Positions 20,438 to 43,921 of a stretch of 64,000 nt of DNA are shown one piece after another. Every line of letters starts with the position of its first letter. The stretch's first letter is position 1. Origin of the DNA: an uncultured Leptospirales bacterium (GTDB taxonomy: Bacteria; Spirochaetota; UBA4802; UBA5550); assembly GCA_964439325.1 (NCBI GenBank), contig CAYTNW010000002.1, forward strand, positions 31,821 to 95,820, written 5' to 3'. The notes below the pieces were generated by a model. It was given only the letters and a program-made list of their open reading frames with translations, had not been told where the DNA came from and searched no databases. Made by a program: the position numbers and the translations under genes.

Positions 20438-20860
20438 TTATGCACCGCCTGCTATTCTATGCAGATGATAGTAGTTTGAGCTGAAAAGAAAATAAATGAT
20501 AATGAGCATTAAAGATATGAGCAGGAGAACAAAGATAAAAAAACCGGAATACTGGAAAGGCCTCAGAAGAACATATTTGATAATGGATAATACGCTCTCT
20601 CCGTCTCTGTGCCGCGTACGTACTTTCAGATATAATAAAACCGTAAGTATTGAAACCATAAAAAATACAGCGGTATATTTAAAGACAATATTAAAGATGT
20701 CGACATTACGTATTGAATAGTATGTGAGCGGAAAGAATATCAGGTCTGCCAGAACCAGTGCCAGTATCAGGGCTATCAGCGTAAAGAAAGAAATCGAGGA
20801 TAGTTCTTTCATTTTACCCTTCAGAGTGCCGTTTTCAAAACTGTTTTTTCCGTCATTCAT
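20438..20860 (-). CDS. small integral membrane protein (3-4 TM)
   Basis: ATG at 20860 (MNDGKNSFENG...) overlaps the stop of the upstream HEAT gene by 8 nt. The longer tracked ORF (to 20977) lies inside the HEAT gene. Confidence 0.5.
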   Translation of the reverse strand: MNDGKNSFENGTLKGKMKELSSISFFTLIALILALVLADLIFFPLTYYSIRNVDIFNIVFKYTAVFFMVSILTVLLYLKVRTRHRDGESVLSIIKYVLLRPFQYSGFFIFVLLLISLMLIIIYFLFSSNYYHLHRIAGGA

Positions 20861-22157
20861 CTTTTTCTTCTTTAATGTTATCATTTTTGGAATCTTCATC
20901 CTCTTTACCTTTTTCGACAATCCCTTTATCCTGGAGAGCCTTTCTCGCTGCTTTACGCACTTTACCGCTTGGATCATTGTCCATTTTATATTTTAATATG
21001 TCAATAGTTCTTTGGTCACTGAACTCTTTTATGAGGTTAACGGCTTTAAGCCTTACCGCTGCGTTATCGCTTCTCAGAGAACCCATAAGCAGCTCGACGG
21101 AATCGGTATCCCCCATAGCAACAAGGGTTGCGACAGACTGTATGTAGAGGTCGTAGTATTTTTTCTTTTTATTGAACGAATATGAATCTATCTCTTTCAG
21201 GAGATTTTTTATATCACCAGCCGTCTCTTTCAGCTTTAAAACTGAAATGGATTTTACTGCGAGTGAACGTAATGCGATATCCTCATCATCATTTTTGAAA
21301 ATTTCAAGAAGGAAATCTTTCTGTGCGGCCGATCCGGTGTACCCTATATACATGATAAGTTTTTCACGGATCATTTTTGAGGTTGAGCTGTCTTTCCCTG
21401 CGGTTATCGCTGTATCGAGTATATCCGGCGCCTTGATGTCGTAGAGGGTCGTAATGACCGCGTCGGTGAGGTTTGAATCCAGCTTGAGGTCCTGTTTCCT
21501 GAATAACTCGACAAGCTTCGGTTTTGCGCTTTCAGCCTTCATCCGGCTGAGTGCGTAGCATGCTGCGATTTTGATCTCTTCCGACGGATCGTCGAGGGCC
21601 TTGATCAGGGCCGGTACCGCCGAATCAGCCTTGAGATCTCCGATCTCGGTTACTGCCGCTTTTTTTACCTCGATGTCTGAATCGTTCTCAACAATAAAGA
21701 CAAGTTTCTGCACCAGTCTGTTTTTGACCTGTTCATCCTTTATATCGTTGATCATTATAATAGCCGTTTTACGGTCTTTCTGCATCCCGTAGTCAAGCGT
21801 CGAAGAAATTTTTTCACCCTTCTTTGTATCGTCCCAGGTCTCGGCTTTTTTATCTTCCTTTTTTGTACCGGTTCCCTTCGCCGAGTTGCTGGCATCTGTT
21901 TTTTTGCTGTCTTTACCCGTTGTTTTGTCATTAACAGCGGAGGCGGAATCCTTTTTCACCGGCGAGTCTTTCTTTTGAGTATCGTTTGATGCGGATTTGG
22001 TTTTGTCATCGGCAGGGAGCGCGGTTTTCGAAACTGCCGTACTGTTTTTCTGTTTGTTGCTGATCCCTGTTTCACTCTGGGGATATGCGGATAATGTCAG
22101 GGTCAACATGCAGAGAAGTGATAATGCGCTATAGATAAATTTTTTTTCCTGTTTCAT
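20853..22157 (-). CDS. secreted HEAT-repeat (PBS-lyase-type) protein with K/D/S/T-rich linker
   Basis: Signal peptide MKQEKKFIYSALSLLCMLTLTLSAYPQ, a low-complexity region, then repeated HEAT-like units (VKKAAVTEIGDLKADSAVPALIKALDDPSEEIKIAACYALS; NAAVRLKAVNLI...). Confidence 0.7.
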   Translation of the reverse strand: MKQEKKFIYSALSLLCMLTLTLSAYPQSETGISNKQKNSTAVSKTALPADDKTKSASNDTQKKDSPVKKDSASAVNDKTTGKDSKKTDASNSAKGTGTKKEDKKAETWDDTKKGEKISSTLDYGMQKDRKTAIIMINDIKDEQVKNRLVQKLVFIVENDSDIEVKKAAVTEIGDLKADSAVPALIKALDDPSEEIKIAACYALSRMKAESAKPKLVELFRKQDLKLDSNLTDAVITTLYDIKAPDILDTAITAGKDSSTSKMIREKLIMYIGYTGSAAQKDFLLEIFKNDDEDIALRSLAVKSISVLKLKETAGDIKNLLKEIDSYSFNKKKKYYDLYIQSVATLVAMGDTDSVELLMGSLRSDNAAVRLKAVNLIKEFSDQRTIDILKYKMDNDPSGKVRKAARKALQDKGIVEKGKEDEDSKNDNIKEEKDE

Positions 22158-23777: not shown

Positions 23778-24107
23778 TCGCGAAGGACATGGAAGTCCGT
23801 GAGCGACACTGTATCGCTAATCAGTTTCCTGTTATGCAGGAAACCGATAAGATATTTTTTTCTGATGCTGTAATGATTTGTTTGTTAAAAAATAATTAAA
23901 ATTTGAGTGGGGATTTTTTATTTTTTTATACTTTTTTTAAACTTAGGATCTTTTTTCCGGGCAGGAGAGGAGCAAAATGGAGAGTTTTACCCTCAAAGAG
24001 AAAATCAGGCTGTATATTACTTTACAAAAATTAAACTCTTCAGTAGGCTGAAAACCGGGTATCGGTTTCATTATGTAACTGTCGATTTGAGGAATATATC
24101 GAATATT

Positions 24108-25085
24108 ATGCTTAAAAAAGAGTGGCTGAAGAAGGCTGAAATTTTCGCGTCGCTGGATAATACCGGTCTGGAACTGATATCCGGTTATTCCGGGTTTGTA
24201 ACACTCGGCCCGGGTACTGAAATATTCAAAGAGGGGAGCAGCGCCGGCGTGCTGTACATAGTTGTTTCCGGCTCGGTACAGATACTGAAATATGACCTGT
24301 ACGAAGGGGTGTCAATTATTGCGGAACTGGTTCCGGGAGATATAATCGGAGAACTGGAATTTTTCATGGAATCCCCTTTCAATGCTCTGGGGGTAACGTC
24401 GGGTGAAACGACACTGCTTAGAATTCCCGGCGAGGGGGACAGCTTCCGCGATGTGCTCGAAAAAAATCCCCGCGTTTCTGCGCTGATCTTTTACGAATTT
24501 TTAAAGGTGATATCAGGCCGGATCAGGAGCGCGAACTCTATGGTTATAGAAAACTCCGCGCTGATGCAGGAGCTGAAGCGCCAGGTATACGGCGACAAGC
24601 TCACCGGTCTTTATAACAAGACATATCTTGAAGAGACTCTTCCCGGTTTTATGACCAGCCGCTCCGAACCGGTGGGGCTTCTGCTGATGAAACCTGATAA
24701 TTTTAAATATATAAACGACAATTTCGGTCATGAAGCCGGTGATGAAACTCTGAAGGTAATGGCTGCGGCGCTGAGCCATTTTGTTGGTGATAAGGGGACC
24801 GTTCTTCGTTATATGGGGAATGAGCTGGGGGTGATACTTCCGCGTTTCGGGCGGAATGAATGTTTCAGGGAGGCCGGGCTTATTCTCAGGATGTTCAACA
24901 TGCTTGATATATCCGAAGCAACCGGATCAGATGACGTCAGATTGTCGATGAGCATCGGGATAGCCGTTTTTCCAGGGGATGCCGATATATCGGACGAGTT
25001 GATATCGCTGGCTCATGAACTCCCTCTGATCGGCAGGGCCAGGGGCGGAAATATGATTCTTTTTCCGGAGGAGATTAAAGCCTGA
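24108..25085 (+). CDS. cNMP-binding domain protein with degenerate GGDEF domain (MGNEL)
   Basis: ATG 24108 (MLKKEWLKKAEIFASLD...). cNMP-binding fold (GDIIGELEFF). GGDEF fold (LTGLYNKTYL...FKYINDNFGHEAGD) whose signature reads RYMGNELG. Confidence 0.8.
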   Translation: MLKKEWLKKAEIFASLDNTGLELISGYSGFVTLGPGTEIFKEGSSAGVLYIVVSGSVQILKYDLYEGVSIIAELVPGDIIGELEFFMESPFNALGVTSGETTLLRIPGEGDSFRDVLEKNPRVSALIFYEFLKVISGRIRSANSMVIENSALMQELKRQVYGDKLTGLYNKTYLEETLPGFMTSRSEPVGLLLMKPDNFKYINDNFGHEAGDETLKVMAAALSHFVGDKGTVLRYMGNELGVILPRFGRNECFREAGLILRMFNMLDISEATGSDDVRLSMSIGIAVFPGDADISDELISLAHELPLIGRARGGNMILFPEEIKA

Positions 25086-26092
25086 TGCGTAACACTACCA
25101 ACGGAAGCATATTGAAGCATATATCGATCTTTTCTGATATAAGCGATGACGATCTGAATAAAATCGCATCTGAAATGAAGAGAAAAGAGGGTAAGGCCGG
25201 AGAGCTACTTTTCAGCGAGGGTGATCCGGGCGATGAACTCTTCGTTGTTGTCAGCGGCGGAGTATCGGTCTTTATCACAGATAAGGAGAACAAGGAGGTG
25301 GTCCTCTCTGAAATTATGACTGGAAATTTTTTCGGAGAGATGTCTATTGTTGAACAGGCTCCGAGGTCGGCCAACTGCCGCGTTATTGAAGACAGCGTTT
25401 TTCTGGTAATGCACGCTGACGACTTTATACGGATTATACACACTATGCCGGAATGCGCCGTAAAGATAATGAACAAGATGCTCGGTATAACCGTAAAGCG
25501 CCTGATGAACGTCGGCGCATTCGTAACGCAGATGGTCCAGTGGGGGGCGGAATCGAGAAAACGCGCGATTACCGATCCCGCGACAGGCCTTTTTAACAGG
25601 CGCTACCTCGAGGAATCCCTTGAGGGGCTTGTCAGCAGGGCCAATACCGGCGGTACGAAGCTGAGTTTTGTTATGTTTGACATGGACAGGTTCGGATCAC
25701 TTAATACAAAATACGGGCAGGAGTTCTGTGACGGGCTGATTGTTACTTCGGCAAGGGCCTTCCGCGATGTTTTTACCGAAGATGATATTCTGGTAAGATA
25801 CGGCGGAGATGAGTTCATTTTTATTTTTCCAAACGCCGGGCATGAGAAGGCGCAGGAGAAATGCGATTCTTTATGCCGGGCAATCCGTGACCTCAGGTTT
25901 CCGGAACATCCGGAACTCAGGCTGTCATGCAGCATGGGATTTGCGACTTATCCTGATGATGCGTCAACTGCCGATGAACTGAAGGAGAGATCGGATAAAG
26001 CGCTTTACCGGGCAAAAGAGAAGGGGAGAGACATGGCGCTAGGTTTTGTGCTGGATGTTACCGGCCACCTCGCCGAGTTTATTGAACTCTGA
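25085..26092 (+). CDS. cNMP-binding domain diguanylate cyclase (intact GGDEF)
   Basis: FFGEMSIVEQAPRSA (cNMP-binding), TGLFNRRYL, VRYGGDEFIFIF, ALYRAKEKGRD. Its ATG overlaps the upstream stop (TGATG). Confidence 0.85.
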   Translation: MRNTTNGSILKHISIFSDISDDDLNKIASEMKRKEGKAGELLFSEGDPGDELFVVVSGGVSVFITDKENKEVVLSEIMTGNFFGEMSIVEQAPRSANCRVIEDSVFLVMHADDFIRIIHTMPECAVKIMNKMLGITVKRLMNVGAFVTQMVQWGAESRKRAITDPATGLFNRRYLEESLEGLVSRANTGGTKLSFVMFDMDRFGSLNTKYGQEFCDGLIVTSARAFRDVFTEDDILVRYGGDEFIFIFPNAGHEKAQEKCDSLCRAIRDLRFPEHPELRLSCSMGFATYPDDASTADELKERSDKALYRAKEKGRDMALGFVLDVTGHLAEFIEL

Positions 26093-27540: not shown

Positions 27541-28026
27541 ATGAAAAAGTATATTGTGGTGTTGTTTGTCTCACTTGCTATGGTTATGTCTGGACTTTCA
27601 TTCAGTGCAATGGCAAAAGACAGTTCCAAAGACAGTAAAAAAACTGTAGCCGATGACAAGAAAGCGGACAAGAAAAAGGATAAGAAAGACAAAAAAGACA
27701 AAAAAGACAAAAAAGATAAAGAAGACGACAAAGACTCAAAAAAAGACAAAAAGGATAAAAAGGACAAAAAAGACAAGGAAGACGATAAAGACTCAAAGAA
27801 AGACAAAAAGGATAAAAAAGATAAAGAAGACGATAAAGCTTCAAAGAAAGAAGACAAGAAAAAAGATGATAAAAAAGAAGCTAAAGCAGCAAAACACACA
27901 AAAACCGCTGATGAGAAAGAACTGAGGGTGGATGAAAAAGGACGCCAGATCTATGAAGGACCAAGAGGGGGACAGTATTATTATACAGATCATGGTACAA
28001 AAGTGTATCTGAAGAAGGACAAATAA
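27541..28026 (+). CDS. secreted K/D-rich tandem-repeat protein with C-terminal GPRGGxYY motif (PBCV-basic-adaptor-like)
   Basis: AAGGAG 8 nt upstream. Signal peptide MKKYIVVLFVSLAMVMSGLSFSAMA. Repeats KKDKKDKKDKKDKEDDKDS. C-terminus GRQIYEGPRGGQYYYTDHGTKVYLKKDK. Confidence 0.7.
   Translation: MKKYIVVLFVSLAMVMSGLSFSAMAKDSSKDSKKTVADDKKADKKKDKKDKKDKKDKKDKEDDKDSKKDKKDKKDKKDKEDDKDSKKDKKDKKDKEDDKASKKEDKKKDDKKEAKAAKHTKTADEKELRVDEKGRQIYEGPRGGQYYYTDHGTKVYLKKDK
27655..27870 (+). repeat. in-frame purine-rich tandem repeat (~60-nt unit built from 9-nt aaagacaaa-type subunits)
   Basis: gacaaaaaagacaaaaaagacaaaaaagataaagaagacgacaaagactcaaaa recurs about three times with small variations. Confidence 0.7.
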
Positions 28027-28341: not shown

Positions 28342-28533
28342 GTGTAAAACCTGCGGGTCTTTATAGCCCATAATAGATATTATTTAAATAGAGATATGAT
28401 TTTTTCTAAAAAAAAGATGAAAAATAAATAAAAAGCCTAAATGGGCTTTTTATTTATTGACATTTATTATTTAAAATATTTAATGGTTATGAATCGATAA
28501 TATAAAAAAGTATGAATAAACAGAGGTATCGAT

Positions 28534-29955
28534 ATGAATTTTAACAGAAGTATTCTTGCAGTAATAATTTTAGTTTCCGGAATTATGATAACCTTTACAG
28601 GGTGCAAGGATGATGACAGTAATAACATTGTCTCATCAGACGGGATAGAGTATCACAATGTGGATGCGTGTCTCATTACCGAAGATGGTAATGTTACAAA
28701 CTGCGATGCGGTAAAAGCATCAGAAAATTTAAAAGCCTCTTCTTCCATAGAACAGAAATCTGCTGCAGCGGAGAAGGCGACTACAGCGACTCTCGGTACA
28801 AATTATCTTTATTACCTTGCAAGAATACTCCCTCCAAAGGTAGATGGTAACTATGTTCAGTCAAACATGGTGCTCCTTTCAACGAACGGAAAGAAGGCAT
28901 TTATCGCTTATAATACAGCAGGTGATACATTCCGCGGGGCTATTCAGATTGTAAACGTTGATGCTTTGAGTCTGCTGCTGGGGATCACGACAGAGTATAA
29001 GTTTTCCGACATGGATATAAACTCCATATATCTCGATGGGGATACGCTTTTCTTCGGCGCGTCGCAGAATCCTGATAATAATTCTGATTTTGCTATGACA
29101 TTTGTCGGGCATATCAGCATCAGCAATCCGGAAAGCCTTGCGACAGTTAAGGCGAATATGGTAAGATTAAATCTGAATGACGATCTGGCTGCGCTCTCAC
29201 CAAGAGGGAGTTATGCTGTGACCAGTATTACCGGGACAAACAGTTCCTATTTTATATCTGTCGGGGCGTATCCGGGTGGTATACTGAAAGTGAGCAAAAC
29301 ACTTGTGAACAACAAGCTTGATATAGCCAATGCTGTATTTACACAATACAGTGATGTAAGGAGCATGACCTCTTTCAATACAAATCTCTATGCTCTGCAG
29401 GGAACTGACCTCGGGGATGGAAATACAGCGGCTGCAAACGGTAATGTCCTTTTAAACAACGGGTCTTCCTGGACTCCTTACTCAATTTCAGATTTTGGCC
29501 CGGCCGGTTACAAGGCGACTATTGATCTTTATAAAGATCCTTCAAAAAATGAAAATGGACTCATATTCCTGGGGTTGTCGGCAAACGGATTAAAGGTTAT
29601 GTCGATGGCGGATTCAGACGGCGCGCTGACTCAAATTGCATCAATATCCAATCCGGCATTAAGCGCGGCGTCTATAGCTGAAGGATACCTTGCGAATACC
29701 AACAGCGCCTCCTATGACAGCGATTTTATTTTCAGTGCAAACGGAAATTACGGTTTCAGGGTTTTTAAAAACAGTAATAACGGCAGTAATAAAATTACTA
29801 ATCCGAATTTTCAGATTGTTGGATATCACAATATGCAGGGCCTTACATACGGCGGAGTCGAGTATTCTGCAAATGATTCGGCATACAGAAACCAGGTACT
29901 TCTTGTGGCTGCCGGAGAAGGGGGAGTCTGCGTATATCTGCTCCTTACTAAATAA
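28534..29955 (+). CDS. lipoprotein, probable beta-propeller (LVIVD-like repeats)
   Basis: MNFNRSILAVIILVSGIMITFTGC lipobox. Recurring strands such as ANGLKVMSM, GNYGFRVFK and AAGEGGVCVYLL. Confidence 0.65.
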   Translation: MNFNRSILAVIILVSGIMITFTGCKDDDSNNIVSSDGIEYHNVDACLITEDGNVTNCDAVKASENLKASSSIEQKSAAAEKATTATLGTNYLYYLARILPPKVDGNYVQSNMVLLSTNGKKAFIAYNTAGDTFRGAIQIVNVDALSLLLGITTEYKFSDMDINSIYLDGDTLFFGASQNPDNNSDFAMTFVGHISISNPESLATVKANMVRLNLNDDLAALSPRGSYAVTSITGTNSSYFISVGAYPGGILKVSKTLVNNKLDIANAVFTQYSDVRSMTSFNTNLYALQGTDLGDGNTAAANGNVLLNNGSSWTPYSISDFGPAGYKATIDLYKDPSKNENGLIFLGLSANGLKVMSMADSDGALTQIASISNPALSAASIAEGYLANTNSASYDSDFIFSANGNYGFRVFKNSNNGSNKITNPNFQIVGYHNMQGLTYGGVEYSANDSAYRNQVLLVAAGEGGVCVYLLLTK

Positions 29956-29977
29956 AACTGATTTATACTGTTAATTA

Positions 29978-30020
29978 AAGGGATCATCCACTATTGAAGG
30001 GGATGGTTCCTTTTTTTTTT
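29978..30020 (+). terminator. rho-independent terminator
   Basis: aaagggatcatcc-actattgaag-gggatggttcc followed by T10. Confidence 0.8.
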
Positions 30021-30196
30021 GTATCCTCTTTCACAAATTTAATTCTGCTGCTTTCCGTGACGAATTATATATCAACAAATGATAGTTTATTTCCGAATTT
30101 AGTATTATATTGATATTAAAGCATATTACCGGTTGCCCAAACGGAATTTATCGATTTATACCGGATAAAAGACGATTCAAATTTCTGGGGAGAAAT

Positions 30197-31618
30197 ATGA
30201 AAAATATAGTAAAATTTATAATAGTTATACTTTTCTGTTTAGGTGCAGGTTCCGCTTATTCGAGAACAGCAGTTGAGGCGATGAATGAGGGGAGGATGAA
30301 CCTATACAGCGGCAGAATAGATGAGGGTATCAGACTGCTGGAAGAAGCCTACTCTATGGATAAAAATTCACCCTACATAAAACTGCTGCTGGCAAAAGGC
30401 TACAGCTGGAACAACCAGTGGGATAAGGCGGTATCCCTGTATAAAGAGGTGACAGCTTCATCAAAACCGGAGGAACAGGTATACTGGGAGGGGAAGTTCG
30501 GCATCGCGCAGGTTACTTCATGGCAGAAGAAATATGATGAGGCGCTGGAGCTGTACCGGAGCATTATCGGCTCATATAAGAAGATCCCGAAAAATTTCAG
30601 CATTGATGTGAACCTCGCGATAGGGGACATTTACTCCTGGAAGATGGAAAATGATAATGCACTGGAACAGTTCAACAGTATGCTGGCCCAGTATCCTGAC
30701 AATATTATGATTCTGAACCGGATTGCAAAGATACACCTCTGGGCAGGAGATTACCAGAAGTCCAGGGAGTACACCGATAAAGTTTTAACCCTTGACGGGA
30801 AGGACCATGACTCGGCCGAAAGGAAAAGGGTTCTTGATCAGATAAAAACCTTCTCGGTTACAGCGGGATACGATTATACATATTATACCTCGAAAAATAC
30901 CGAGGGTGACAATATTAATGTACATAACTCGATGCTCGGTCTTAACTGGCAGTATTCAATTCCGCTGAGAGTATTCTCATACGTGACCAATGTTGTTCAG
31001 AACTCCATAGAGACCGATGATCCGGAAAAGGCATCAAAATGGAATTATGATACGAACGTCAGGGGTGGAGGGATATATCGTGTAAATTCACTGACCTTCG
31101 TTTCATTTGCGGCGGATTACACCTACAACGCGAAGATCTTTCCCGATTTCAGCTCCGAGATGACGCTTAGCAGAAAGCTTACTCCGAATATCGACGTTGT
31201 GGGTCTTTACAAGTTTACATACGACAGGCTTGACACAAACCAGACTGTAAAAAGTAAAAAATACAATCTTGTTTCACCGGGACTGATTTTTTACTACAGT
31301 CCGGAGATTTATAACAGGCTGCAGTTCTACGTTGAATCCGATTTCAAGGATGTGTATTATTCTGTATTGATACATCAGCATCTCGGTTTAAATCCGGAAA
31401 ACATATTCCAGTTTTTTGTTTTCCTCAGCCAGGGTAGAACCTACCTGACGTTTTCTGATACCAGTGTTCTGCAGAAGGTAACCACTTACAGCGTTTCGTT
31501 TACATATACGCATTTTTTTACTCCGGACTGGGGAATAGAGTGTGCCACAGGCCTCACAACGAGGGTCAACAGTTACAACAACTTCCATGGCGGATTGAAC
31601 GTAATATACAAATGGTGA
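30197..31618 (+). CDS. outer-membrane protein: N-terminal TPR domain + C-terminal beta-barrel (PgaA/BcsC/NfrA-like architecture)
   Basis: ATG 30197 follows GGGGAG. Signal peptide MKNIVKFIIVILFCLGAGSAYS. TPR-like helices to ~aa 230, then an alternating aromatic/polar pattern ending GGLNVIYKW. Confidence 0.7.
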   Translation: MKNIVKFIIVILFCLGAGSAYSRTAVEAMNEGRMNLYSGRIDEGIRLLEEAYSMDKNSPYIKLLLAKGYSWNNQWDKAVSLYKEVTASSKPEEQVYWEGKFGIAQVTSWQKKYDEALELYRSIIGSYKKIPKNFSIDVNLAIGDIYSWKMENDNALEQFNSMLAQYPDNIMILNRIAKIHLWAGDYQKSREYTDKVLTLDGKDHDSAERKRVLDQIKTFSVTAGYDYTYYTSKNTEGDNINVHNSMLGLNWQYSIPLRVFSYVTNVVQNSIETDDPEKASKWNYDTNVRGGGIYRVNSLTFVSFAADYTYNAKIFPDFSSEMTLSRKLTPNIDVVGLYKFTYDRLDTNQTVKSKKYNLVSPGLIFYYSPEIYNRLQFYVESDFKDVYYSVLIHQHLGLNPENIFQFFVFLSQGRTYLTFSDTSVLQKVTTYSVSFTYTHFFTPDWGIECATGLTTRVNSYNNFHGGLNVIYKW

Positions 31619-31672
31619 CCACTCTTGCCGGTAATAATTTCTGTAAAAATGTAAAGGGACCGGGATACTGCT

Positions 31673-33718
31673 TTGGATGAGAAACCTGTAGAGATTCATG
31701 ATAACATTTTCCGGGTAGGGGCCAATCTGCAGGTCAATGATCTGCATATTAATTCATACCTGATGGTTGATGGAGACGAGGGTATTCTCTTTGGACCCGG
31801 TTCTGCTGTTGATTTTGACAAGACGTACGAAAATATTTTAAAAATAATACCTGTTGAAAAATTACGGTATGTCATTCTGCACAGCCAGGACCCTTCGGTC
31901 TGCGCGTCTTTACCGCTGTTAGAACAGAACGGTTTTTCCGGAAAGATAGTTACACATATGAGAAGCGCGTATTTTATCAAGCATTACGGCATCTCATCTT
32001 TTTTCTTTTATACCAATCTTAACGCCAACAGGCTTGTCCTGGGATCGGGACGTGTAATAAGTTTTCTTAACACCCCGTATCTTAAATCAGCCGGATCATT
32101 CATTTCGTATGACAGCCGGTCGGGAATACTTTTTTCCGGGGACCTGTTCGGGGCATTTCAGAAGCGTTGGAGCCTTTATGCTGACGATACCTACCTTGAA
32201 GAGATGATAAAGTATCATGAGGAGTATGTTCCCGAGAGCGAATTTTTACGGTATTATCTCGAAATCCTGGTTAAAAAAGAGATCTCGATCATTGCTCCTC
32301 AATACGGATCGGTGATTACTAAAGATATAAGGAAATGCATCACAGCTCTGATGGATGTGAAAAGCGGGGCGTTTTTCAATAATACAAAGATCGCTCTCCC
32401 TCTTACCGGCGGGACGGCTGGTATCTGCAACGGTTTTCTTAAAGTGTATTACTCGGCTTTTACCAGAGATGAGGTGATGGAGGTTTTCAAGGGGAGCGGT
32501 ATCCGGCTCGATGAAAAAACAGGCCTTATTACAGGATTTGACTTTGGTGTTGATGATCTGTGGAACCGTTTTTTTGAGATAATAGTCATCCGCAAAGGAC
32601 TTGAGTGGATCAACATAATAGAGGTTGAACTGCACAGAGCTGTCCTTGAAAATAAAATGAAATATCCTGATATTATATATAGATCATCGCTGCATGAGAT
32701 GGAGGAGAAATATAAAAAACTTGAGAACGAGAGGACCTCGCTCGTAGAGACCCTGCATGCTATTGAAAAAGAGTACCAGATAAAGGAGAACCAGCTGTTC
32801 AAGGATCCTCTCGCCCAGGTGTACAAGGAGGATATGTTTATTGAAAATCTTACCTCTGACATCGCGGTATGGAGAGATCTGGGGATAGAATTCGCTTTTT
32901 TCATTATTGAAATAGACAACCTTATTCAGCTTAATAACAGGTACGGAAGAGAGGTGGGAGATGAGCTGCTTGCTAACAGCTCATATTTACTTAAAAATTT
33001 TAAAAAGGCGAACAAATCCTATGCGCATCATCTTATCTTCAGAATGAACGGGCCGAGGTTTACCTATTACTGCAATGACGTTACAAAGGACGAGATCGCT
33101 TCAATTGCCGAAGATGTGAGGAAGGAGTTCCGGGATTCAAAAATTTTTATAACAGGAATCACGGTTTCTATCGGAGTAATCCATTCCTCCGACCTGACAG
33201 AAACAAATACCTGTGATGATTCTGAAATTGCCGGGAATATTGTTAAAATCGCGAACTCCAGGCTGAGGCTTGCAAAGCATAAGGGGAGTGACTCGGTCTG
33301 CAGCGATTCAGCACCGCAATCCGGACCCGAGAGTGAGGATTATGTAATGGTTATAGATCCCGACATAAGTCTGAGGTATATGCTTGAAACTCATCTCTCA
33401 AGCGCAGGTTTTAAGGTGTTTACCTGCGCGATGGGTGATGAAGCCCTTGAGAAAATTGATATAATGAAACCGGCTGTGATCATCAGCGGAATGATGCTCC
33501 CGAAGATGGACGGATTTACCCTGAGAGCAAAACTTCTAGAGGAGTCCGCGCTTAAAGATATACCCTTCATAATGACATCGTCTATAAAGGATGATAAATC
33601 TATAATAAGGGCCCAGTCTCTCGGAATATACCACTATTTTAAAAAACCTTATTCTATTGTCGAGCTGATAGGGCTGGTTAAACATATAAAAAGCAGAATT
33701 GAAGATCATGCTCAGTAA
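31673..33718 (+). CDS. multidomain signalling protein: FprA/ODP-type MBL-like domain + coiled coil + degenerate GGDEF (NGPRF) + receiver-like domain lacking the acceptor Asp
   Basis: VEIHDNIFRVG...NSYLMVDGDEGILFGPG...LRYVILHSQDPS; IEIDNLIQLNNRYGREVGDELL...FRMNGPRFTYY; VMVIDPDISLRYML...AVIISGMMLPKMDGF...YHYFKKP. TTG start; the exact start is uncertain. Confidence 0.75.
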   Translation: MDEKPVEIHDNIFRVGANLQVNDLHINSYLMVDGDEGILFGPGSAVDFDKTYENILKIIPVEKLRYVILHSQDPSVCASLPLLEQNGFSGKIVTHMRSAYFIKHYGISSFFFYTNLNANRLVLGSGRVISFLNTPYLKSAGSFISYDSRSGILFSGDLFGAFQKRWSLYADDTYLEEMIKYHEEYVPESEFLRYYLEILVKKEISIIAPQYGSVITKDIRKCITALMDVKSGAFFNNTKIALPLTGGTAGICNGFLKVYYSAFTRDEVMEVFKGSGIRLDEKTGLITGFDFGVDDLWNRFFEIIVIRKGLEWINIIEVELHRAVLENKMKYPDIIYRSSLHEMEEKYKKLENERTSLVETLHAIEKEYQIKENQLFKDPLAQVYKEDMFIENLTSDIAVWRDLGIEFAFFIIEIDNLIQLNNRYGREVGDELLANSSYLLKNFKKANKSYAHHLIFRMNGPRFTYYCNDVTKDEIASIAEDVRKEFRDSKIFITGITVSIGVIHSSDLTETNTCDDSEIAGNIVKIANSRLRLAKHKGSDSVCSDSAPQSGPESEDYVMVIDPDISLRYMLETHLSSAGFKVFTCAMGDEALEKIDIMKPAVIISGMMLPKMDGFTLRAKLLEESALKDIPFIMTSSIKDDKSIIRAQSLGIYHYFKKPYSIVELIGLVKHIKSRIEDHAQ

Positions 33719-36554
33719 TATTACATTAATAATAATCGTATGTGTATTGCTTCTTGCGGATATTTTATGCGCGATACTTCTTTTTTATTCAAAAGGCAGG
33801 AGGCGCAGACGGGCTGAAAAGTATTCAAGACTGGAAAAACGCGTGATAGACGCACTGGCCGGTTTTGGTGACGATATCGACCTCCCCGGTTTAAAAATCG
33901 ATCCGGGGATGCTCTTTTCAATTTTTAAAAGCATTACGGTTTCCATAGAATTATCAGAGACGGTAAAGCGGAAATTTATAGATTTTTTTAACGAAACAGG
34001 CATTGTAAAAAAATACTGCCTTCGTATTAAATCGCTCAGCAGGATCAAACGCTCGGAGGCAGCACTGAACCTTGCCTTTCTGCCATGCAACAGAAGCCGC
34101 AGAACCCTTGAATCGGCGATGGAGAATGAGAAGCATTATCATATCAAAGTCTTCATCGTTAATTCACTTATCGAGATTGATGATTCTGACGCCATTCCGT
34201 ATATACTCCAGACCCTGATAGGGTCACCTCAGTGGTATAAGGAAAAAATATGCAGCATAATGTGGCAGTTCAGTGACAAGCTGCATAGTTTCCTTATAAA
34301 TCTGAGCTCCATTGACCTGAAAGATCTGAAGATGGTAATAGTTTCCTTTGCCAAATACTATTTTTCACCCGATCTGAAGGCTCTGCTGCTGGAATTTATT
34401 AAATCCGATGACCCGGATATCGCGAATCCTGCATCAGACGCGTGTCTTAAATTCTATCCTGAGCAGCTGCGTTCCGGGAAATATATCAAGTCCGCGAAGC
34501 CGTATATAAAACGGAATGCGGTTGCCGCCACAGGGCTTCTTGCAACAGCAGAGTCTATCGAGACGCTTGCAGGCGCAATGCGCGACGGTGAAATCTTTGA
34601 TATGTGTGTTTCGGCCATATCGGGAATCATAATCAGTAACAGCCAGCTTTTACAGGTAGTTGAGTCGCGGTTTACTACGGAAACCGACCCTGTTATTAAA
34701 AAGGGGCTGGCGGAGGTGCTTTCCAACCGGATTGAATATATTCTTACGAAGCTCAGATTTGACAATTCCGAAAAGCTGAAAAAACTGATTGTTGATATAA
34801 TTTCTCAGGGCAACTTAAGCAGCACAATCGCTTTTCTGAATGAAAACAGCGACCAGAAACTTGAAGGGAGAATCTGTGAAGCTGTTGAACCTCTTCTCCA
34901 AACGAGGGATGACATTGTCCGTGAATTCAGGCTGTATCTCAACGAACGTGTTCTTGAAAAGATGAAGCTTGCGAAGCTTGAACCACAGAAGGGCGATCCG
35001 AGAGCGGAGGTCGTGCGTATAGATCTGCTGAGAGTGTTTCTCGGGATAGCGGTACTGTCTTTTCCGGCTGCATTTATAATAAACTACTGGGGGACTTTTG
35101 TCCACGCCGGATTTTACGGAACACTGAAAAATCTGTTTTACCTGTTTAACTATTTTTTCGCTTTTTACGGGATTACGCTGAACTCAATATATCTGCTGCT
35201 GCTGGTCTTCTCTTTTATCGGTTCAAGAATGGAACTGCGGTGCTGGAACATGAAGGACACAAGGTTTCTGTTTAAGCAGGGGATCCTCCCGTCGATATCG
35301 ATTATTGCTCCGGCGTACGGAGAAGAGGCGACGATTATCGAGAGCGTCAGCTCCCTGCTGAACCTCAGTTATCCCGACTATGAGGTAATAGTCGTCAATG
35401 ACGGTTCAACCGACAATACGCTGCGGACCCTGATAGATAACTTTAATTTAAAACGGGTGGACATGGATGTCGCTGAAAAACTTAAAACAGGTTCACTGCG
35501 CGGTCTTTACAGGAACAGATATATACCAAACCTTACAGTGGTGGACAAGGTAAACGGAGGTAAGGCCGATTCTCTGAATGCGGGGATAAATATCGCAACA
35601 AAAGAGTATTTCTGCGGAATTGACGCGGATTCACTGCTGGAGAGGGATTCGCTGCTTAAAATGGCATCGCCATTTCTCGATTCGGACAGGGAGGTGATAG
35701 CTACCGGGGGAAACATCGTGCCGGTCAACGGCTGTACGGTGGATAAGGGCTACCTTACCAGGATACAGATACCGGGAAATTTTCTTTCAAGGCTGCAGAC
35801 AATGGAGTACATAAGATCGTTCATATCGGGCAGGATAGGCTGGGCCACTATACGGTGTCTGCTTATAATTTCCGGGGCATTCGGGCTGTTCAGAAAATCC
35901 TCGGTGATTGCGAGCGGCGGATACATGACAGGTAAAGAGAAATTCGGCAAAGACACTGTCGGGGAGGATATGGAGCTTGTCGTCCGGCTGATAAAGGATT
36001 CAAAAAGGAGGGGTGAGAACGGAAATGTGAATTATGTATTCAATGCAAACTGCTGGACAGAGGTCCCGGAGAGCTACACTATTCTACGGAAGCAGCGTGA
36101 CCGCTGGCAGAGGGGACTGCTTGATATAATGACGTTTCATATCGGTATGCTGTTCAATCCGCTATACAGAGAAGTGGGGCTGATTGCGTTTCCGTATTTC
36201 ATAATTTTTGAAGTGATAGGTCCGTGGATCGAGGCACAGGGACTTTTTATGTTCATTACTGCACTTGCGATGGGACTGCTGACTACACATATTGTATTGC
36301 TGTTTTTCATCGGTACTATTTTTATGGGGATAGCTGTATCGATAACCTCTTTTTATATTATGGAGAGGGGAAACAACTATTTTTCCAACAAGGATATATC
36401 GGTCCTGATTTTATATGCGTTTATCGAAAATTTCGGAATAAGGCAGTATTTCAGCCTGCTCAGACTCGGCGGATATATAAATGCGCTGAGAAATGTACAG
36501 GGGTGGGGTAAAATGGTCCGCAAAGGATTTCAGAACAAGCCTGGTACTGCATAG
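33708..36554 (+). CDS. membrane-embedded processive family-2 glycosyltransferase fused to an N-terminal HEAT-like repeat domain
   Basis: ATG 33708 (11-nt overlap with the upstream gene). N-terminal TM, ~400 aa of helical repeats, TM pair, GT2 core IIAPAYGEE...VVNDGSTDNT...GIDADS...GEDMELV...QRDRWQRG, then C-terminal TM helices. Confidence 0.8.
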   Translation: MLSNITLIIIVCVLLLADILCAILLFYSKGRRRRRAEKYSRLEKRVIDALAGFGDDIDLPGLKIDPGMLFSIFKSITVSIELSETVKRKFIDFFNETGIVKKYCLRIKSLSRIKRSEAALNLAFLPCNRSRRTLESAMENEKHYHIKVFIVNSLIEIDDSDAIPYILQTLIGSPQWYKEKICSIMWQFSDKLHSFLINLSSIDLKDLKMVIVSFAKYYFSPDLKALLLEFIKSDDPDIANPASDACLKFYPEQLRSGKYIKSAKPYIKRNAVAATGLLATAESIETLAGAMRDGEIFDMCVSAISGIIISNSQLLQVVESRFTTETDPVIKKGLAEVLSNRIEYILTKLRFDNSEKLKKLIVDIISQGNLSSTIAFLNENSDQKLEGRICEAVEPLLQTRDDIVREFRLYLNERVLEKMKLAKLEPQKGDPRAEVVRIDLLRVFLGIAVLSFPAAFIINYWGTFVHAGFYGTLKNLFYLFNYFFAFYGITLNSIYLLLLVFSFIGSRMELRCWNMKDTRFLFKQGILPSISIIAPAYGEEATIIESVSSLLNLSYPDYEVIVVNDGSTDNTLRTLIDNFNLKRVDMDVAEKLKTGSLRGLYRNRYIPNLTVVDKVNGGKADSLNAGINIATKEYFCGIDADSLLERDSLLKMASPFLDSDREVIATGGNIVPVNGCTVDKGYLTRIQIPGNFLSRLQTMEYIRSFISGRIGWATIRCLLIISGAFGLFRKSSVIASGGYMTGKEKFGKDTVGEDMELVVRLIKDSKRRGENGNVNYVFNANCWTEVPESYTILRKQRDRWQRGLLDIMTFHIGMLFNPLYREVGLIAFPYFIIFEVIGPWIEAQGLFMFITALAMGLLTTHIVLLFFIGTIFMGIAVSITSFYIMERGNNYFSNKDISVLILYAFIENFGIRQYFSLLRLGGYINALRNVQGWGKMVRKGFQNKPGTA

Positions 36555-36581
36555 CAGTTTTCATAAAAACAGGAAACTGCT
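36553..36581 (+). terminator. hairpin immediately after the GT2 stop codon
   Basis: agcagttttc-ataaaaaca-ggaaactgct (9/10 bp). No U-run. Confidence 0.4.
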
Positions 36582-36683
36582 GATGTGATACATCGATCAC
36601 GGACATCCATTATATGTTAAACTAAATATAGAGATATAGATTTCAGGATACAATATATTGATAGTGGGGAGAACTAAGGGCAT

Positions 36684-37818: not shown

Positions 37819-39885
37819 ATGAAATTAAAAACAGTAATACAGGTGGTGTTATTAGCCGCGGCGGTTGCCATAACAGCATGCGGAGGCGACAGCAAGAAAA
37901 AGGTAAGTAGCCAGCCCTTTATAACAGTATGGGATACAACATTGACCGGAACAGGAACAACGTTATCCAACCAGCTAAAGCTGCCCCTTGATGCTTCCGG
38001 AACATATGATTTTTACGTTAAATGGGGGGATGGAAAAACAGATCATATAACTTCATTCGCCCAGACCGAGATCACTCATACATATACAACCGGAGGGATA
38101 TACAATGTATCGATAGACGGGACAATAGAGGGATTCGGGTTTATATCTGCAAGCTCCGGGGACAATATTAAACTGACAGATGTCAAAAACTGGAATAATG
38201 TCAAACTGCATAACAACGGGCATCAGTTTGCCGGAGCGGCCAACTTAACCGGATTCAGCGCCGCAGATGAATTAGACCTGAGCAATATCACCAACATGAG
38301 CGGTATGTTTGAGAATGCGGAACTGTTCAATCAGGATATAAGTTCGTGGGATGTCAGTAACGTAACCGATATGAACGGAATGTTTGAAAATGCATTTGCG
38401 TTCAATCAGGATATCGGGGCATGGAATGTAGGGAATGTTACAGATATGAATTCGATGTTTGCATATGCATCTTCATTTAATCAGGATATCAGCGGATGGA
38501 TAGTGAATAAGGTTACAGATATGAGTTCGATGTTCGACAATGCGTTATCGTTTAATCAGCAGATCGGATCGTGGGATGTGGGCAATGTTGCAAATATGCG
38601 CAGTATGTTTAAAGGGGCTTCGTCTTTCAACGGGGATATAAGCGGATGGAATGTCGCCAAAGTAACTGATATGAGCTCAATGTTTGAAGATGCACAGGCT
38701 TTCAACCAGAACATATCATCATGGAATGTAAGCAGTGTAACAAATATGAATACAATGTTTTACGGAGCATCTGTGTTTAACCAGGATATCAATTATAACA
38801 GTGTTACAGGATCATGGAATGTAAGCAAGGTTACGGATATGAGTTATATGTTCGCCAATGCCATTGCTTTCAACGGGAATATATCCTTATGGAATGTAGG
38901 CAGCGTAACTGATATGAGTTACATGTTCGGTATGGCATCTGCATTCGATCAGGATATCAGTTCATGGAATGTCGCTAATGTAACAAACATGAACGGTATG
39001 TTTGCTTATACATCGGCGTTTAGCAGGGATCTAAGCTCATGGGATGTCTCTAATGTGACAAATATGAGCAGCATGTTTGAAAATGCATCATTCAATCAGA
39101 AACTCGAGTGGGGAAACAGGGTAAGCAAAGTTAAGGATATGAATTCGATGTTTAAAAACGCATCTGCATTCAACCAGGACATAGGTTTATGGAATGTAAG
39201 TGGTGTTACGAATATGAACAGTATGTTTAACGGCGCTTCAGCATTCAATCAGAATATAGGATCATGGAATGTGAGCAGTGTAACGGATATGAACAGTATG
39301 TTCTACAGTGCGACTGTATTCAATCAGGATCTGCATTCATGGGATGTAAGCAAGGTTAAAGATATGAGTTCAATGTTTACCCTGGCAGAGGCATTCAACG
39401 GCAATATAGGATCATGGGTCGTAAGCAGTGTGACAACAATGAGTTATATGTTTTCCTATGCATCGTCATTCAACCAGGCACTCAACTGGGGCAATAGTGT
39501 CAGCAGTGTAACTGATATGAGATTTATGTTTTCTAACGCGACTGATTTCGACGGAGACATCAGTTCCTGGAATGTAAGCAGTGTAACAATGATGAACAGC
39601 ATGTTTCTTGGAGCTGCAGCGTTTAACCAGAATATCGGATTGTGGGATGTGAGCAATGTCGGTGATATGGGGTGTATGTTTAAAGGCGCTTCTGCATTCA
39701 ATCAGGATATAAGTTCATGGAACGTAAGCAAGGTCACGGAGATGAGCAGTATGTTTGAAAACGCAGCTGCGTTTGTGCAGGATCTGCTGTCCTGGGGAGA
39801 TCATATCAGCAGCAGTACTACCTATATGAGTAATATGTTTACCGGCAGCGGAGTTACCACGACGCCGACCTGGTATCCTTATTGA
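37819..39885 (+). CDS. BspA-type / DUF285 repeat surface lipoprotein
   Basis: MKLKTVIQVVLLAAAVAITACGG lipobox, then more than 20 tandem ~25-aa units of the form F-x-x-A-x-x-FNQDIxSWNVSxVTxMxxMF. Confidence 0.85.
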   Translation: MKLKTVIQVVLLAAAVAITACGGDSKKKVSSQPFITVWDTTLTGTGTTLSNQLKLPLDASGTYDFYVKWGDGKTDHITSFAQTEITHTYTTGGIYNVSIDGTIEGFGFISASSGDNIKLTDVKNWNNVKLHNNGHQFAGAANLTGFSAADELDLSNITNMSGMFENAELFNQDISSWDVSNVTDMNGMFENAFAFNQDIGAWNVGNVTDMNSMFAYASSFNQDISGWIVNKVTDMSSMFDNALSFNQQIGSWDVGNVANMRSMFKGASSFNGDISGWNVAKVTDMSSMFEDAQAFNQNISSWNVSSVTNMNTMFYGASVFNQDINYNSVTGSWNVSKVTDMSYMFANAIAFNGNISLWNVGSVTDMSYMFGMASAFDQDISSWNVANVTNMNGMFAYTSAFSRDLSSWDVSNVTNMSSMFENASFNQKLEWGNRVSKVKDMNSMFKNASAFNQDIGLWNVSGVTNMNSMFNGASAFNQNIGSWNVSSVTDMNSMFYSATVFNQDLHSWDVSKVKDMSSMFTLAEAFNGNIGSWVVSSVTTMSYMFSYASSFNQALNWGNSVSSVTDMRFMFSNATDFDGDISSWNVSSVTMMNSMFLGAAAFNQNIGLWDVSNVGDMGCMFKGASAFNQDISSWNVSKVTEMSSMFENAAAFVQDLLSWGDHISSSTTYMSNMFTGSGVTTTPTWYPY
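38221..39800 (+). repeat. coding tandem array of ~75-78-nt DUF285 units
   Basis: Recurrent ...ttcaatcaggatat(a/c)(a/g)g(t/c)tcatggaatgtaagcag(t/c)gt(a/t)ac(a/g)gatatga... along the gene. Confidence 0.8.
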
Positions 39886-42962: not shown

Positions 42963-43801
42963 GCTTTTGTCCCATTCCGCTTTGCAATTGAATTATTCTC
43001 ATTTTTTATTAAGCAGCCTGTCTATTTTCTTCAAACACTTATTTACCAAAGCTTTCAATATTTATTAATAGTGAGTCTATGTGATCATGACCGTTTAGTT
43101 TTCGGAAGTTTTTTTCACTTTCAAAAATTCCAGTACATGCCCATCGAATAGCCATATTGGAATTATACAATTCCTTTACCCTTCTGGTAATATTTCGTAT
43201 ACCGCCATTCAGGCTCACAATTGGATTAGTGGTGCTGAGCCTTCTCATACTCCAAGTGCCGTTTTATTGCCTTTTTTTATCTATGCCAAGAACTACAGGT
43301 ACTGTCGTTTTTGCATAGACTATCCCGTCTATCATAATAAAGTGATACGATTCTTTAATCGTTCTGAATTCAAGTTTCAAGTTGTTCTTGAGTCTTTATA
43401 ATAATTATAGCAGGTTGTTGATTCTGTTTCCTTCTCTTTACTGTCCTTAATATTTCTAATACTTGAATGACTTACAGGGATTTTCTGGCCACCAAGTATT
43501 ACCGATGTTTCTTTTGAACTCCACGGATAAATTTCCTGTTATCAATATGTTTATATCTTTCTCTGCATATTGTTGTTATTTTACTCTCAATAATTTCATG
43601 ATATCTATTCATAGCGAAATAACTTTTTCAATAAGGGATTTATGGACCTCATCATTAATCTCTTTTTCTGATAATGCTGTAATTCCTTCTTGCTTTTTTT
43701 TTCCCTCTTTTTTAACTTTCATAGCGGCATCTCCCGGTGCATTATGAAATAATGCACCGGGAGATGCCGCTCAATTGACAACACCATTTGGGGCAAAATC
43801 T
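42963..43801 (-). mobile_element. decayed IS256-family insertion sequence (internal deletion, frameshifts)
   Basis: Imperfect terminal inverted repeats: gcttttgtcccattccgctttgcaattgaat at the left, and on the right (reverse complement) agattttgccccaaatggtgttgtcaattgag. Transposase-like pieces lie on the minus strand. Confidence 0.65.
43039..43722 (-). pseudogene. IS256-family (Mutator-type) transposase pseudogene
   Basis: Fragments in different frames: MKVKKEGKKKQEGITALSEKEINDEVHKSL..., ...YHEIIESKIT..RERYKHIDNRKFIR..., ...ILGGQKIPV..., ...IMIDGIVYAKTTVPVVLGIDKK..., and the tracked ORF 43039-43248 (STTNPIVSLNGGIRNITRRVK...FRKLNGH). Confidence 0.6.
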
Positions 43802-43921
43802 AAGGAAACTCGAGAAATTTTTGATGGTAGTTTGCGACGGTTACGCCGTCATGTTGGTTTCCTGGAAAGACAACAATCCCGGCCCAGGTGCATAACTTAT
43901 GGAAGAGACAACGGAGGCATT

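Follow-up and report, generated by a model that had tools for sequence, protein, structure and literature searches.

Most well studied synthase-dependent exopolysaccharide (EPS) systems, including those for cellulose, poly-N-acetylglucosamine (PNAG), alginate, Pel, and Nfr, are gated by cyclic di-GMP (c-di-GMP). In several polysaccharide systems the glycosyltransferase is accompanied by a degenerate-GGDEF partner, as with PelD (Pel), PssE (Listeria Pss), YdaK (Bacillus subtilis ydaJ-N), and MxdA (Shewanella), all of which are encoded beside the glycosyltransferase and are needed for its activity; degenerate GGDEF domains of the receptor type bind c-di-GMP through an RxxD I-site. We know of no ODP domain, C-terminal receiver (REC) domain, or HEAT adaptor in any of these four partners. 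The subject here is a locus that encodes all three, at positions 30197-36554 of a 64,000-nucleotide stretch of DNA from an uncultured Leptospirales bacterium (contig CAYTNW010000002.1, positions 31,821 to 95,820; the whole of this 64-kb stretch is referred to below as the window). As judged from sequence, this locus is a real three-gene unit for surface polysaccharide synthesis and export, and it is a fused variant of a widespread family in which a REC protein, a transmembrane (TM)-anchored HEAT protein, and a family 2 glycosyltransferase (GT2) are elsewhere encoded by separate genes.

The unit consists of three plus-strand open reading frames, at 30110/30197-31618 (gene 1), 31673-33718 (gene 2), and 33699/33708-36554 (gene 3), so that the layout given in a first-pass annotation of this DNA, with a 54-nucleotide gap between the first two genes and an 11-nucleotide overlap between the last two, is confirmed. 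The gene 1 ATG at 30197 has a Shine-Dalgarno sequence, GGGGAG, 6 nucleotides upstream; the start codon of gene 2 is the TTG at 31673, and the N termini of its orthologues are conserved from the same point; the overlap runs from the gene 3 ATG at 33708 to the gene 2 stop codon at 33716-33718. The order gene 1-gene 2-gene 3 is kept in every close relative for which enough sequence is available, bearing out the co-conservation that the neighborhood survey had been meant to address. The relatives compared are loci L001-L003 (from the same species), L004, L005/L006, L009, L010, and L011, with GT2 identities of 61-80%.

Synthase, exporter, and accessory proteins

Gene 3 (33708-36554, plus strand) encodes a protein of 948 residues that Pfam, NCBIfam, and AlphaFold2 (AF2) analyses together describe as a HEAT-fused processive GT2 synthase. 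A first TM helix (residues 1-31), followed by the basic run KGRRRRR, leads into a predicted cytoplasmic HEAT-like alpha-solenoid (about residues 60-420; 33885-34967), for which HEAT_2 scores 31.5 bits against a Pfam cut-off of 27.7 and AF2 builds helical hairpins with predicted local distance difference test (pLDDT) values of about 80-93. A TM hairpin before the catalytic domain (residues 434-515; 35007-35252) is indicated by hydropathy segments at 434-454 and 482-506 and by an AF2 helix at 432-515. The GT-A catalytic domain (35289-36116) corresponds to a Pfam match to Glyco_tranf_2_3 at residues 528-803, and after it come C-terminal TM or interface helices (residues 821-928; 36168-36491), modeled at 821-854, 860-889, and 894-928, which presumably form the translocation channel. 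The order of TM helix, HEAT repeats, and GT2 core proposed at first reading thus stands, as do the motifs on which it drew, since VVNDGSTDNT, GIDADS, GEDMELV, and QRDRWQRG, together with the NVIYKW terminus of gene 1, are all present in the translations. The catalytic residues are D565 (in NDGSTD), D639 and D641 (DAD), E753-D754 (GEDMEL), and Q796-R797-x-R799-W800, and the corresponding D, DxD, ED, and QRxRW elements are invariant in 16 homologues.

The best Foldseek match of the gene 3 model (overall pLDDT 75.6) is the Chlorella virus hyaluronan synthase (HAS; E 7.6e-10 over about 500 aligned columns), followed by BcsA, while the nearest Escherichia coli synthase in sequence is PgaC (31% identity over 280 residues, E 1.6e-25), followed by YaiP and then BcsA. 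The highest-scoring NCBIfam model is PgaC_IcaA (TIGR03937), at 110.8 bits against a cut-off of 422.3. With a HAS/BcsA fold and PgaC as nearest relative, rather than a placement among non-processive or lipid-linked transferases, sequence and model support assignment of this GT2 to the processive, membrane-channel type (BcsA/HAS/PgaC), in agreement with the first-pass annotation.

Gene 1 (30197-31618, plus strand) is predicted to encode the outer-membrane export protein. Its 473 residues comprise a signal peptide (1-22), about six tetratricopeptide repeats (TPR; 25-214), and a 14-strand barrel (219-473) that closes with NVIYKW, the terminal residue being aromatic. The AF2 model, built from a 17-sequence alignment, has a pLDDT of 86.1 and 14 beta-strands, and its best match in the PDB by Foldseek is E. 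coli BcsC (9b8a, E 2.9e-13), ahead of FadL and OmpG, which are 14-strand barrels. Pfam TPR families match gene 1, and the YaiO barrel model TIGR04390 does so marginally (33.4 bits against a cut-off of 32); PF19413 (YaiO) was not reported for gene 1 itself in the Pfam scan. A profile built from the gene 1 family can be aligned over its full length to TPR outer-membrane proteins that do match PF19413 (hhalign probability 99.4%, E 1.2e-21, 355 columns). On the strength of the model, the gene 1 product is an outer-membrane protein that joins TPR to a beta-barrel, as had been read from the alternating pattern of its C-terminal half.

Several described systems are similar in part. The unit resembles Pga in that the gene 3 core is nearest to PgaC, gene 1 joins TPR to a barrel as PgaA does, and some relatives carry a gene resembling carbohydrate esterase family 4 (CE4), as PgaB does. 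Yet the PgaA model (TIGR03939) gives gene 1 only 22.9 bits against a cut-off of 366.65, the PgaC model falls short for gene 3 as noted above, and the window locus differs in its YaiO-type barrel, its 430-residue TM-HEAT extension on the synthase, and its REC-containing partner. None of genes 1-3 or the lipoprotein described below has a BLAST match to E. coli PgaA, PgaB, or PgaD, and no PgaB was found among these four by Pfam, NCBIfam, or BLASTP against the E. coli protein. Like Bcs, the unit combines a processive GT2 having its own channel with a TPR/barrel exporter, and BcsA and BcsC are among the top fold matches; unlike Bcs, gene 3 is only 20% identical to BcsA (E 0.002) and scores 28.1 bits against 699 for the CelA model, PilZ and BcsB are lacking, Pfam does not match gene 1 to BCSC_C, and this protein, at 473 residues with some 6 TPR and a much shorter barrel, contrasts with a BcsC of 1,157 residues. 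The NfrB/NfrA/DgcJ system also pairs a GT2 with a TPR outer-membrane protein and a dedicated local signaling partner, but no BLAST similarity to NfrB or NfrA was found at E 1e-2, MshEN is missing by Pfam, and the partner here is non-catalytic. The uncharacterized E. coli yaiO-yaiP-yaiS cluster likewise places a YaiO-family barrel near a GT2 (YaiP) and a deacetylase (YaiS). It differs in that YaiP is 27% identical over the GT-A domain and has no QxxRW, YaiO has no TPR, and REC and HEAT are not represented. Membership of this cluster was considered and rejected, the similarity to YaiP being limited to that 27% and YaiO having no pairwise similarity to gene 1.

These comparisons also bear on whether the product of the synthase is exported at all. 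The GT2 might instead make a periplasmic or membrane glycan, a glycolipid, or short chito-oligosaccharides, with gene 1 an unrelated neighbor. NodC and other non-EPS GT2 models do score, weakly, and the gene 1 barrel has 14 modeled strands where PgaA, BcsC, and AlgE have 16-18; in addition, many fused loci have no porin within 10 kb, and the window unit encodes no hydrolase or deacetylase. Set against this, gene 3 shares QRxRW, ED, and a bundle of four C-terminal TM helices with channel-forming synthases, gene 1 finds its best fold match in BcsC, and linkage of TPR-YaiO porins to the GT2s of this family recurs in seven or more independent lineages, in different phyla and in varying gene order, so that a non-secreted product of this sort seems decidedly unlikely. 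Homologues of gene 1 (TPR-YaiO outer-membrane proteins) flank the same GT2 in L007, L008, L015, L056, L057, L081, and the flavobacterium Mesonia, and in the first five of these their position and orientation vary. For secretion of an EPS, the PgaC-like core makes a hexosamine such as N-acetylglucosamine the most likely sugar.

The unit probably has a fourth gene. Immediately upstream, at 28534-29955 (plus strand), is a gene for a predicted lipoprotein of 473 residues (lipobox ..ITFTGC), situated between a bidirectional terminator (28423-28458) and the terminator that precedes gene 1. The protein itself has no Pfam match, and a PDB sequence search with its profile returned none. Its homologues nevertheless stand beside the same GT2/porin system in L007, L008, L015, and L081 (blastp 7e-20 to 3e-7), adjoining the porin gene in L015, and in Mesonia (L098; 6e-9) directly after the GT2. 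The lipobox cysteine is invariant among these homologues, and a weak LVIVD Pfam match occurs in three of five members, making an LVIVD-like beta-propeller, periplasmic or outer-membrane-associated, the probable identity of the protein as far as its sequence goes. The lipoprotein is absent from the close relatives L004, L006, L009, L010, and L011, and in the syntenic L009 the gene is missing at the same position; its absence there, when it is linked to the system in other phyla, shows that accessory content varies. Two other identities were rejected: a tandem duplicate of gene 1, both being of 473 residues (BLASTP found no similarity, and the two are not paralogues), and the 455-residue accessory protein of the relatives, which on comparison proved to be different.

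That 455-residue protein is one of two encoded after the synthase in L004, L005/L006, L010, and L011 (L004 12917-16080; L005 12987-16147; L010 10935-14115). It has no detectable family, whereas the second, of 596 residues, has CE4-like motifs (HDVD...H-T-x-x-H); PDB sequence searches with the two proteins gave no match. Both genes are absent in L009 and, by tblastn over its whole 64 kb, in the window, so that the accessory gene is the lipoprotein in the window and the 455-residue/CE4-like pair in L004, L005/L006, L010, and L011. In L039 (7102-10047) the 596-residue family is fused to a TM helix and HEAT, implying a periplasmic modifying enzyme tethered to a cytoplasmic adaptor; Polysacc_deac_1 scores a borderline 23.2 against 23.1 bits in this protein, and that score together with the reading of motifs is the basis of the CE4 assignment. 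A relationship of the 596-residue protein to PgaB was rejected (hhalign probability 0.2%). In L010, glmS and a UDP-sugar dehydrogenase gene lie directly upstream, and these, with the CE4-like genes of the relatives, are hints of an N-acetyl-hexosamine polymer. Earlier description of the locus as minimal therefore overlooked both the upstream lipoprotein and the two downstream genes of the relatives, one of them deacetylase-like; the accompanying statement that no periplasmic scaffold is encoded holds for genes 1-3 but leaves out the conserved lipoprotein gene directly before them.

Some of the related loci contain interrupted genes. Gene 1 is split in L005 (7112-8699; from a 4.27-Mb assembly) and intact in L006 (7220-8641; a Logan run-level assembly), which represent the same locus, and the gene 2 equivalents of L009 and L011 are also fragmented. 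Assembly frameshift errors, not pseudogenes, are the most likely cause in each case.

The REC-HEAT-GT2 family

An exhaustive search of 1.84 billion representatives (clusters at 50% identity) with a profile of the HEAT N-domain of gene 3 yielded 2783 matching representatives at E<=1e-3 and 116 at E<=1e-30. Some of the weaker matches are generic multi-repeat HEAT proteins. Many of the top ones, 940-1010 residues long, are the same HEAT-GT2 fusion, WP_131919220.1 of Heliophilum fasciatum among them. The full-length gene 3 alignment, used to scan metagenomes, gave more than 571 confirmed matches, and among the 80 loci listed from these about 29 are HEAT-GT2 fusions and about 50 have a stand-alone GT2 of 470-490 residues, 40-45% identical to the gene 3 core over about 470 residues. 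In the unfused loci the gene directly before the GT2 encodes a protein of 340-390 residues with an N-terminal TM helix and HEAT_2 scores of up to 110 bits, and these separate TM-HEAT proteins are homologous to the gene 3 N-domain (hhalign probability 97.7%, E 2.1e-12, 235 columns). The family is found in Bacteroidota and Spirochaetota and in metagenome-assembled genomes (MAGs) named as Gemmatimonadota, Actinomycetota, Acidobacteriota, and Marinimicrobia, frequently in company with a TPR-YaiO porin, a histidine kinase/Hpt relay, and a lipoprotein.

What links these loci beyond the synthase is the position of the receiver. In all 27 fused loci, and in 26 of the 34 unfused loci that could be evaluated, the HEAT or HEAT-GT2 gene starts where a REC domain ends; in the window, 29 nucleotides separate the end of the gene 2 REC from the gene 3 ATG. 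Three natural orders of fusion occur, REC-HEAT-GT2 (L035), HEAT-GT2-REC (P0066 and P0086), and the HEAT-GT2 of the window. Such cross-phylum conservation of REC/HEAT/GT2 gene order, together with fusions of its parts, is the classical signature of partners that interact physically.

The complete unfused series is present in a cultured flavobacterium, Mesonia aestuariivivens (L098, GCA_019311235.1; operon at JAHWDF010000001.1, 386260-401621), and likewise in L081; in both, the genes are ordered TPR-YaiO porin, hybrid histidine kinase, Hpt-like protein, stand-alone REC, HEAT, GT2, and a 581-residue protein. The Mesonia GT2 is 42% identical to the gene 3 core over 473 residues (E 6e-124). Its operon thus resembles the window unit in having an orthologous GT2, homologous HEAT, TPR-YaiO porin, and lipoprotein components, and a REC directly before HEAT, while in the window HEAT is fused to GT2, REC is fused to ODP and a degenerate GGDEF and has lost its phospho-acceptor, and neither a histidine kinase nor an Hpt protein is encoded; none was found among the open reading frames scanned between 23.9 and 42.8 kb. 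L099, with a hybrid histidine kinase and Hpt in its operon, also has a stand-alone REC and no GGDEF. An Acidimicrobiales MAG encodes an Hpt-REC protein, HEAT, GT2, and a hybrid kinase with no porin, as expected for a monoderm. Several regulators in the family are Hpt-REC proteins, and those encoded upstream in unfused loci frequently have the order Hpt-REC-GGDEF-REC or REC-GGDEF-REC, with GGEEF intact in L007/L008 and the motif degenerate in others. By sequence, then, the element that is constant in the regulators of the family is the receiver and not GGDEF, and as this receiver is often accompanied by a histidine kinase and Hpt, the ancestral control would have been a phosphorelay.

Neither the HEAT partner nor the system as a whole is represented by a model in NCBIfam (June 2026) or Pfam, and source annotations of these proteins are generic ("HEAT repeat domain-containing protein" or "glycosyltransferase"). 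Literature searches on YaiO/YaiP, HEAT with GT2, response regulators, and PgaC, which gave partial coverage of the literature, found no description. The system is therefore apparently undescribed, being of the known synthase-dependent kind with an undescribed regulatory module. The claim that this combination of domains was new is upheld to that extent, although the window locus is no isolated oddity and represents one derived member of a large, multi-phylum family.

Gene 2 and the proposed control of the synthase

Gene 2 (31673-33718, plus strand) is the predicted cytoplasmic regulatory subunit and combines an ODP-like metallo-beta-lactamase fold, a coiled coil, GGDEF, and a receiver. The ODP domain (residues 25-212; 31745-32308) was examined by alignment to the Treponema denticola ODP (TdODP) and 18 orthologues, the GGDEF domain (377-539; 32801-33289) by alignment to DosC (4zve), and the receiver (558-669; 33344-33679) by MAFFT alignment with CheY and 70 REC domains; the Pfam scores are 157.5 bits for ODP (PF19583; against 27.2), 47.5 bits for GGDEF, and 55.6 bits for REC. 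From their sequences all three domains are degenerate in this genome, extending to the whole protein what had been recognized as a degenerate signaling partner. In the ODP domain, which aligns to TdODP (6qrq) with E 4.7e-25, LHSQDPS replaces THQDPD, K stands for H, and Y for H, so that three or four of six probable metal ligands (H-x-D-x-D, H, D, H) are replaced, the ligand positions being taken from the TdODP alignment and the pattern general to metallo-beta-lactamases and flavodiiron proteins. At the GGDEF position stands NGPRF, which departs from the GG(D/E)EF of an active site; parts of the nucleotide-binding half (D..N..G..GD) are retained. In the receiver (CheY numbering), D57 is replaced by G and D13 by P, leaving it without the phospho-acceptor and acidic pocket of a canonical REC, while S87 and K109 are kept and the match to Pfam at the level of the fold remains.

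The extent of these losses differs across the fused clade. No fused-clade regulator has an intact GGDEF motif (it reads NGPRF, VGTEL, NGHLF, EGALF, and others), and because this clade spans identities of 33-80%, the degenerate state is evidently ancient and maintained. At D57 the fused clade almost always has Glu, replaced in the window subclade by Gly or Ala (Glu is kept in L010), with Pro at D13 in this subclade, whereas the receivers of unfused loci are canonical (D13, D57, T/S87, K109). Many fused-clade orthologues keep the ODP motifs HHQDPD/H/FSGD/PQHG (L015, L017, L018, L022, L025, L032, L038, and L085); the window subclade and L012/L036 have lost the ligands, and in L005/L006 the entire domain is missing, marking it as dispensable.

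So much loss within one protein raises the question of whether the copy in the window is a relic, inactive or in decay, a reading that would also accommodate the absence of the 455-residue and CE4-like genes from the whole 64-kb window. It must be regarded as very unlikely indeed, as the three reading frames are complete and uninterrupted, an identical protein is encoded in each of three independent metagenome assemblies, and gene 3 retains its catalytic residues. Moreover, few parts of the locus are conserved as well as the degenerate GGDEF-REC half, and the degeneracy of GGDEF, as noted, is old. Between the window and L004/L010, gene 2 identity is 71-75% for GGDEF and 74-77% for REC but 51-55% for ODP, and in gene 3 it is 59% for HEAT and 81% for the GT2 core. 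Identities of GGDEF and REC so near that of the GT2 core imply that these domains are maintained for something besides catalysis or phosphotransfer.

What that something might be was previously proposed to be reception of c-di-GMP, with the degenerate GGDEF protein, the HEAT domain, or both gating the synthase in the manner of PelD/PssE/YdaK or of DgcJ-NfrB. The general argument is substantial, since Bcs, Pga, Pel, alginate, and Nfr systems are all under c-di-GMP control, and gene 2 does resemble PelD, PssE, YdaK, and MxdA in being a degenerate GGDEF protein next to a polysaccharide glycosyltransferase. Every fused-clade regulator has GGDEF ahead of REC, as do several of the unfused ones; the domain is strongly conserved despite its degeneracy, with the nucleotide-binding half partly retained; and two cNMP-GGDEF genes, one of them intact and both syntenic in L009, lie 4 kb upstream of the unit. 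In L007 (7017-8552) and L008 (787-2322), both of the FCB-group/Marinimicrobia, the operon itself encodes an Hpt-REC-GGDEF-REC protein with an intact GGEEF and, before HEAT, a second stand-alone REC, so that in these loci a phosphorelay and a local diguanylate cyclase may converge on one synthase.

The details of the proteins nevertheless speak against such a role. Gene 2 differs from PelD, PssE, and YdaK in that no RxxD I-site is present five residues before the GGDEF position, where it reads YAHH, and none was found in the aligned fused-clade orthologues. None of the three proteins has a PilZ, MshEN, or GIL domain by Pfam; the reported absence of PilZ, MshEN, and, by BLAST, PgaD is thus correct. 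Many family members have a stand-alone REC and no GGDEF at all (L066, L081, Mesonia, and L099), leaving REC as the constant element, and we know of no HEAT domain that binds c-di-GMP. The proposal of HEAT or the degenerate GGDEF as a c-di-GMP receptor finds no support in the sequences and draws on analogy, and we consider it unlikely.

The picture that we regard as on balance probable is that of an EPS machine on which a receiver acts through a HEAT platform, gene 2 serving in this genome as a structural activator. Gene 3 would polymerize a UDP-sugar at the cytoplasmic face of the inner membrane and thread the chain through its own TM channel; gene 1 would take up the chain in the periplasm and pass it through the outer membrane, probably with assistance from the lipoprotein at the periplasmic or outer-membrane side. 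The TM-anchored cytoplasmic HEAT solenoid would be the docking platform for the receiver domain. In the wider family, a canonical REC fed by the operon-encoded histidine kinase and Hpt would, upon phosphorylation, gate polymerization post-translationally. In the window clade the receiver would now be a pseudo-receiver at the end of a protein with ODP and a degenerate GGDEF, which suggests that control has shifted from phosphotransfer to N-terminal sensing, perhaps of O2 or iron where the ODP ligands are intact. As these ligands too are lost here, gene 2 most likely acts constitutively, as an activator or scaffold that is required structurally, and regulation in this genome may be left mainly to expression. 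The anatomy, folds, motifs, homologies, gene linkage, and domain fusions are as described above, and it is from them that we infer the REC-HEAT contact, the gating of the synthase, the identity of the polymer, and the direction of evolutionary change.

Several observations weigh against this picture. The contact of REC with HEAT and its effect on catalysis are argued from gene order and fusions, no member of the family has been characterized, and the polymer assignment is accordingly putative, PgaC similarity being just 31% and the TIGR03937 score far below its cut-off. Eight of the 34 evaluable unfused loci have no adjacent REC, and for many fused-clade loci no TPR-YaiO porin was detected within 10 kb. 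The recurrence of the GGDEF-REC pairing in the family shows the pairing to be old, and a nucleotide input may therefore have a part in control. The ODP ligand set comes from an alignment and general knowledge of metallo-beta-lactamases, not from a structure, and confidence in the AF2 model of gene 3 is moderate, falling to low at residues 687-752, with the TM hairpin drawn as a single long helix.

Genomic setting and significance

Of the signals that border the unit, the intrinsic terminator after the lipoprotein gene (29977-30013, plus strand) is the strongest, with a 13-bp stem followed by T10, a folding free energy of -18.5 kcal/mol (z -3.48), and none of 200 shuffled sequences equally stable, in keeping with its earlier description. 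The downstream hairpin, which lies over the gene 3 stop codon (36549-36586, plus strand), is real as well (-15.1 kcal/mol, z -4.12) but has no U-tract, making it weak evidence for termination and thus for the insulation that had been attributed to it. A sigma-70-like promoter for genes 1-3 (30079-30108, plus strand; ATGATA-18-TATTAT, 9/12 in a consensus scan) is a candidate only, because such sites occur in the region at chance level; the consensus scan of the region for promoters and terminators gave counts no better than chance. An Rfam search of the whole window gave no match.

The window is otherwise ordinary chromosome, with SMC, UvrA, ClpB, and HtrA-like genes, and the close relatives of the locus are uncultured, among them Spirochaetae bacterium HGW-Spirochaetae-5 (Spirochaetota). 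The tandem cNMP-binding plus GGDEF proteins 4 kb upstream of the unit are encoded at 23907-25085 and 25085-26092 (plus strand), the second having an intact RYGGDEF and the first no canonical motif, and the pair is syntenic in L009. A separate HEAT-repeat protein of 434 residues (20853-22157, minus strand; HEAT_2 108 bits) has an N-terminal hydrophobic segment resembling a signal peptide. At 27541-28026 (plus strand), a 161-residue reading frame carries a PBCV-specific basic adaptor domain (37.6 bits) at its C terminus, which is conserved in L009. On the other side of the unit, the 688-residue protein encoded at 37819-39885 (plus strand) has six DUF285 repeats (629 bits), described in Pfam as a Mycoplasma protein of unknown function. 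An 854-residue reading frame at 43775-46339 (plus strand) has no Pfam match; G+C content is 57% at about 44000-46000 and about 42% in the rest of the window, and the DNA around this frame could be foreign or compositionally unusual.

It is possible, if somewhat short of probable, that the loci described here represent a widespread unrecognized class of EPS systems in which a GT2 is switched directly by a receiver through a membrane-anchored HEAT adaptor, with the window unit a derived, fused form carrying a frozen pseudo-receiver. If so, two-component phosphorylation would stand in these systems in the place of c-di-GMP receptors such as PilZ, PgaD, PelD, and MshEN. Because Mesonia aestuariivivens is a cultured host of the complete unfused operon, the hypothesis is testable. 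Should the receiver gate the synthase, the series from a canonical REC through a Glu-substituted REC to a Gly/Ala pseudo-REC, with ODP ligands lost alongside, would illustrate a stepwise decay of signaling, and direct post-translational output from a two-component system would be a new regulatory principle for the production of biofilm matrix.

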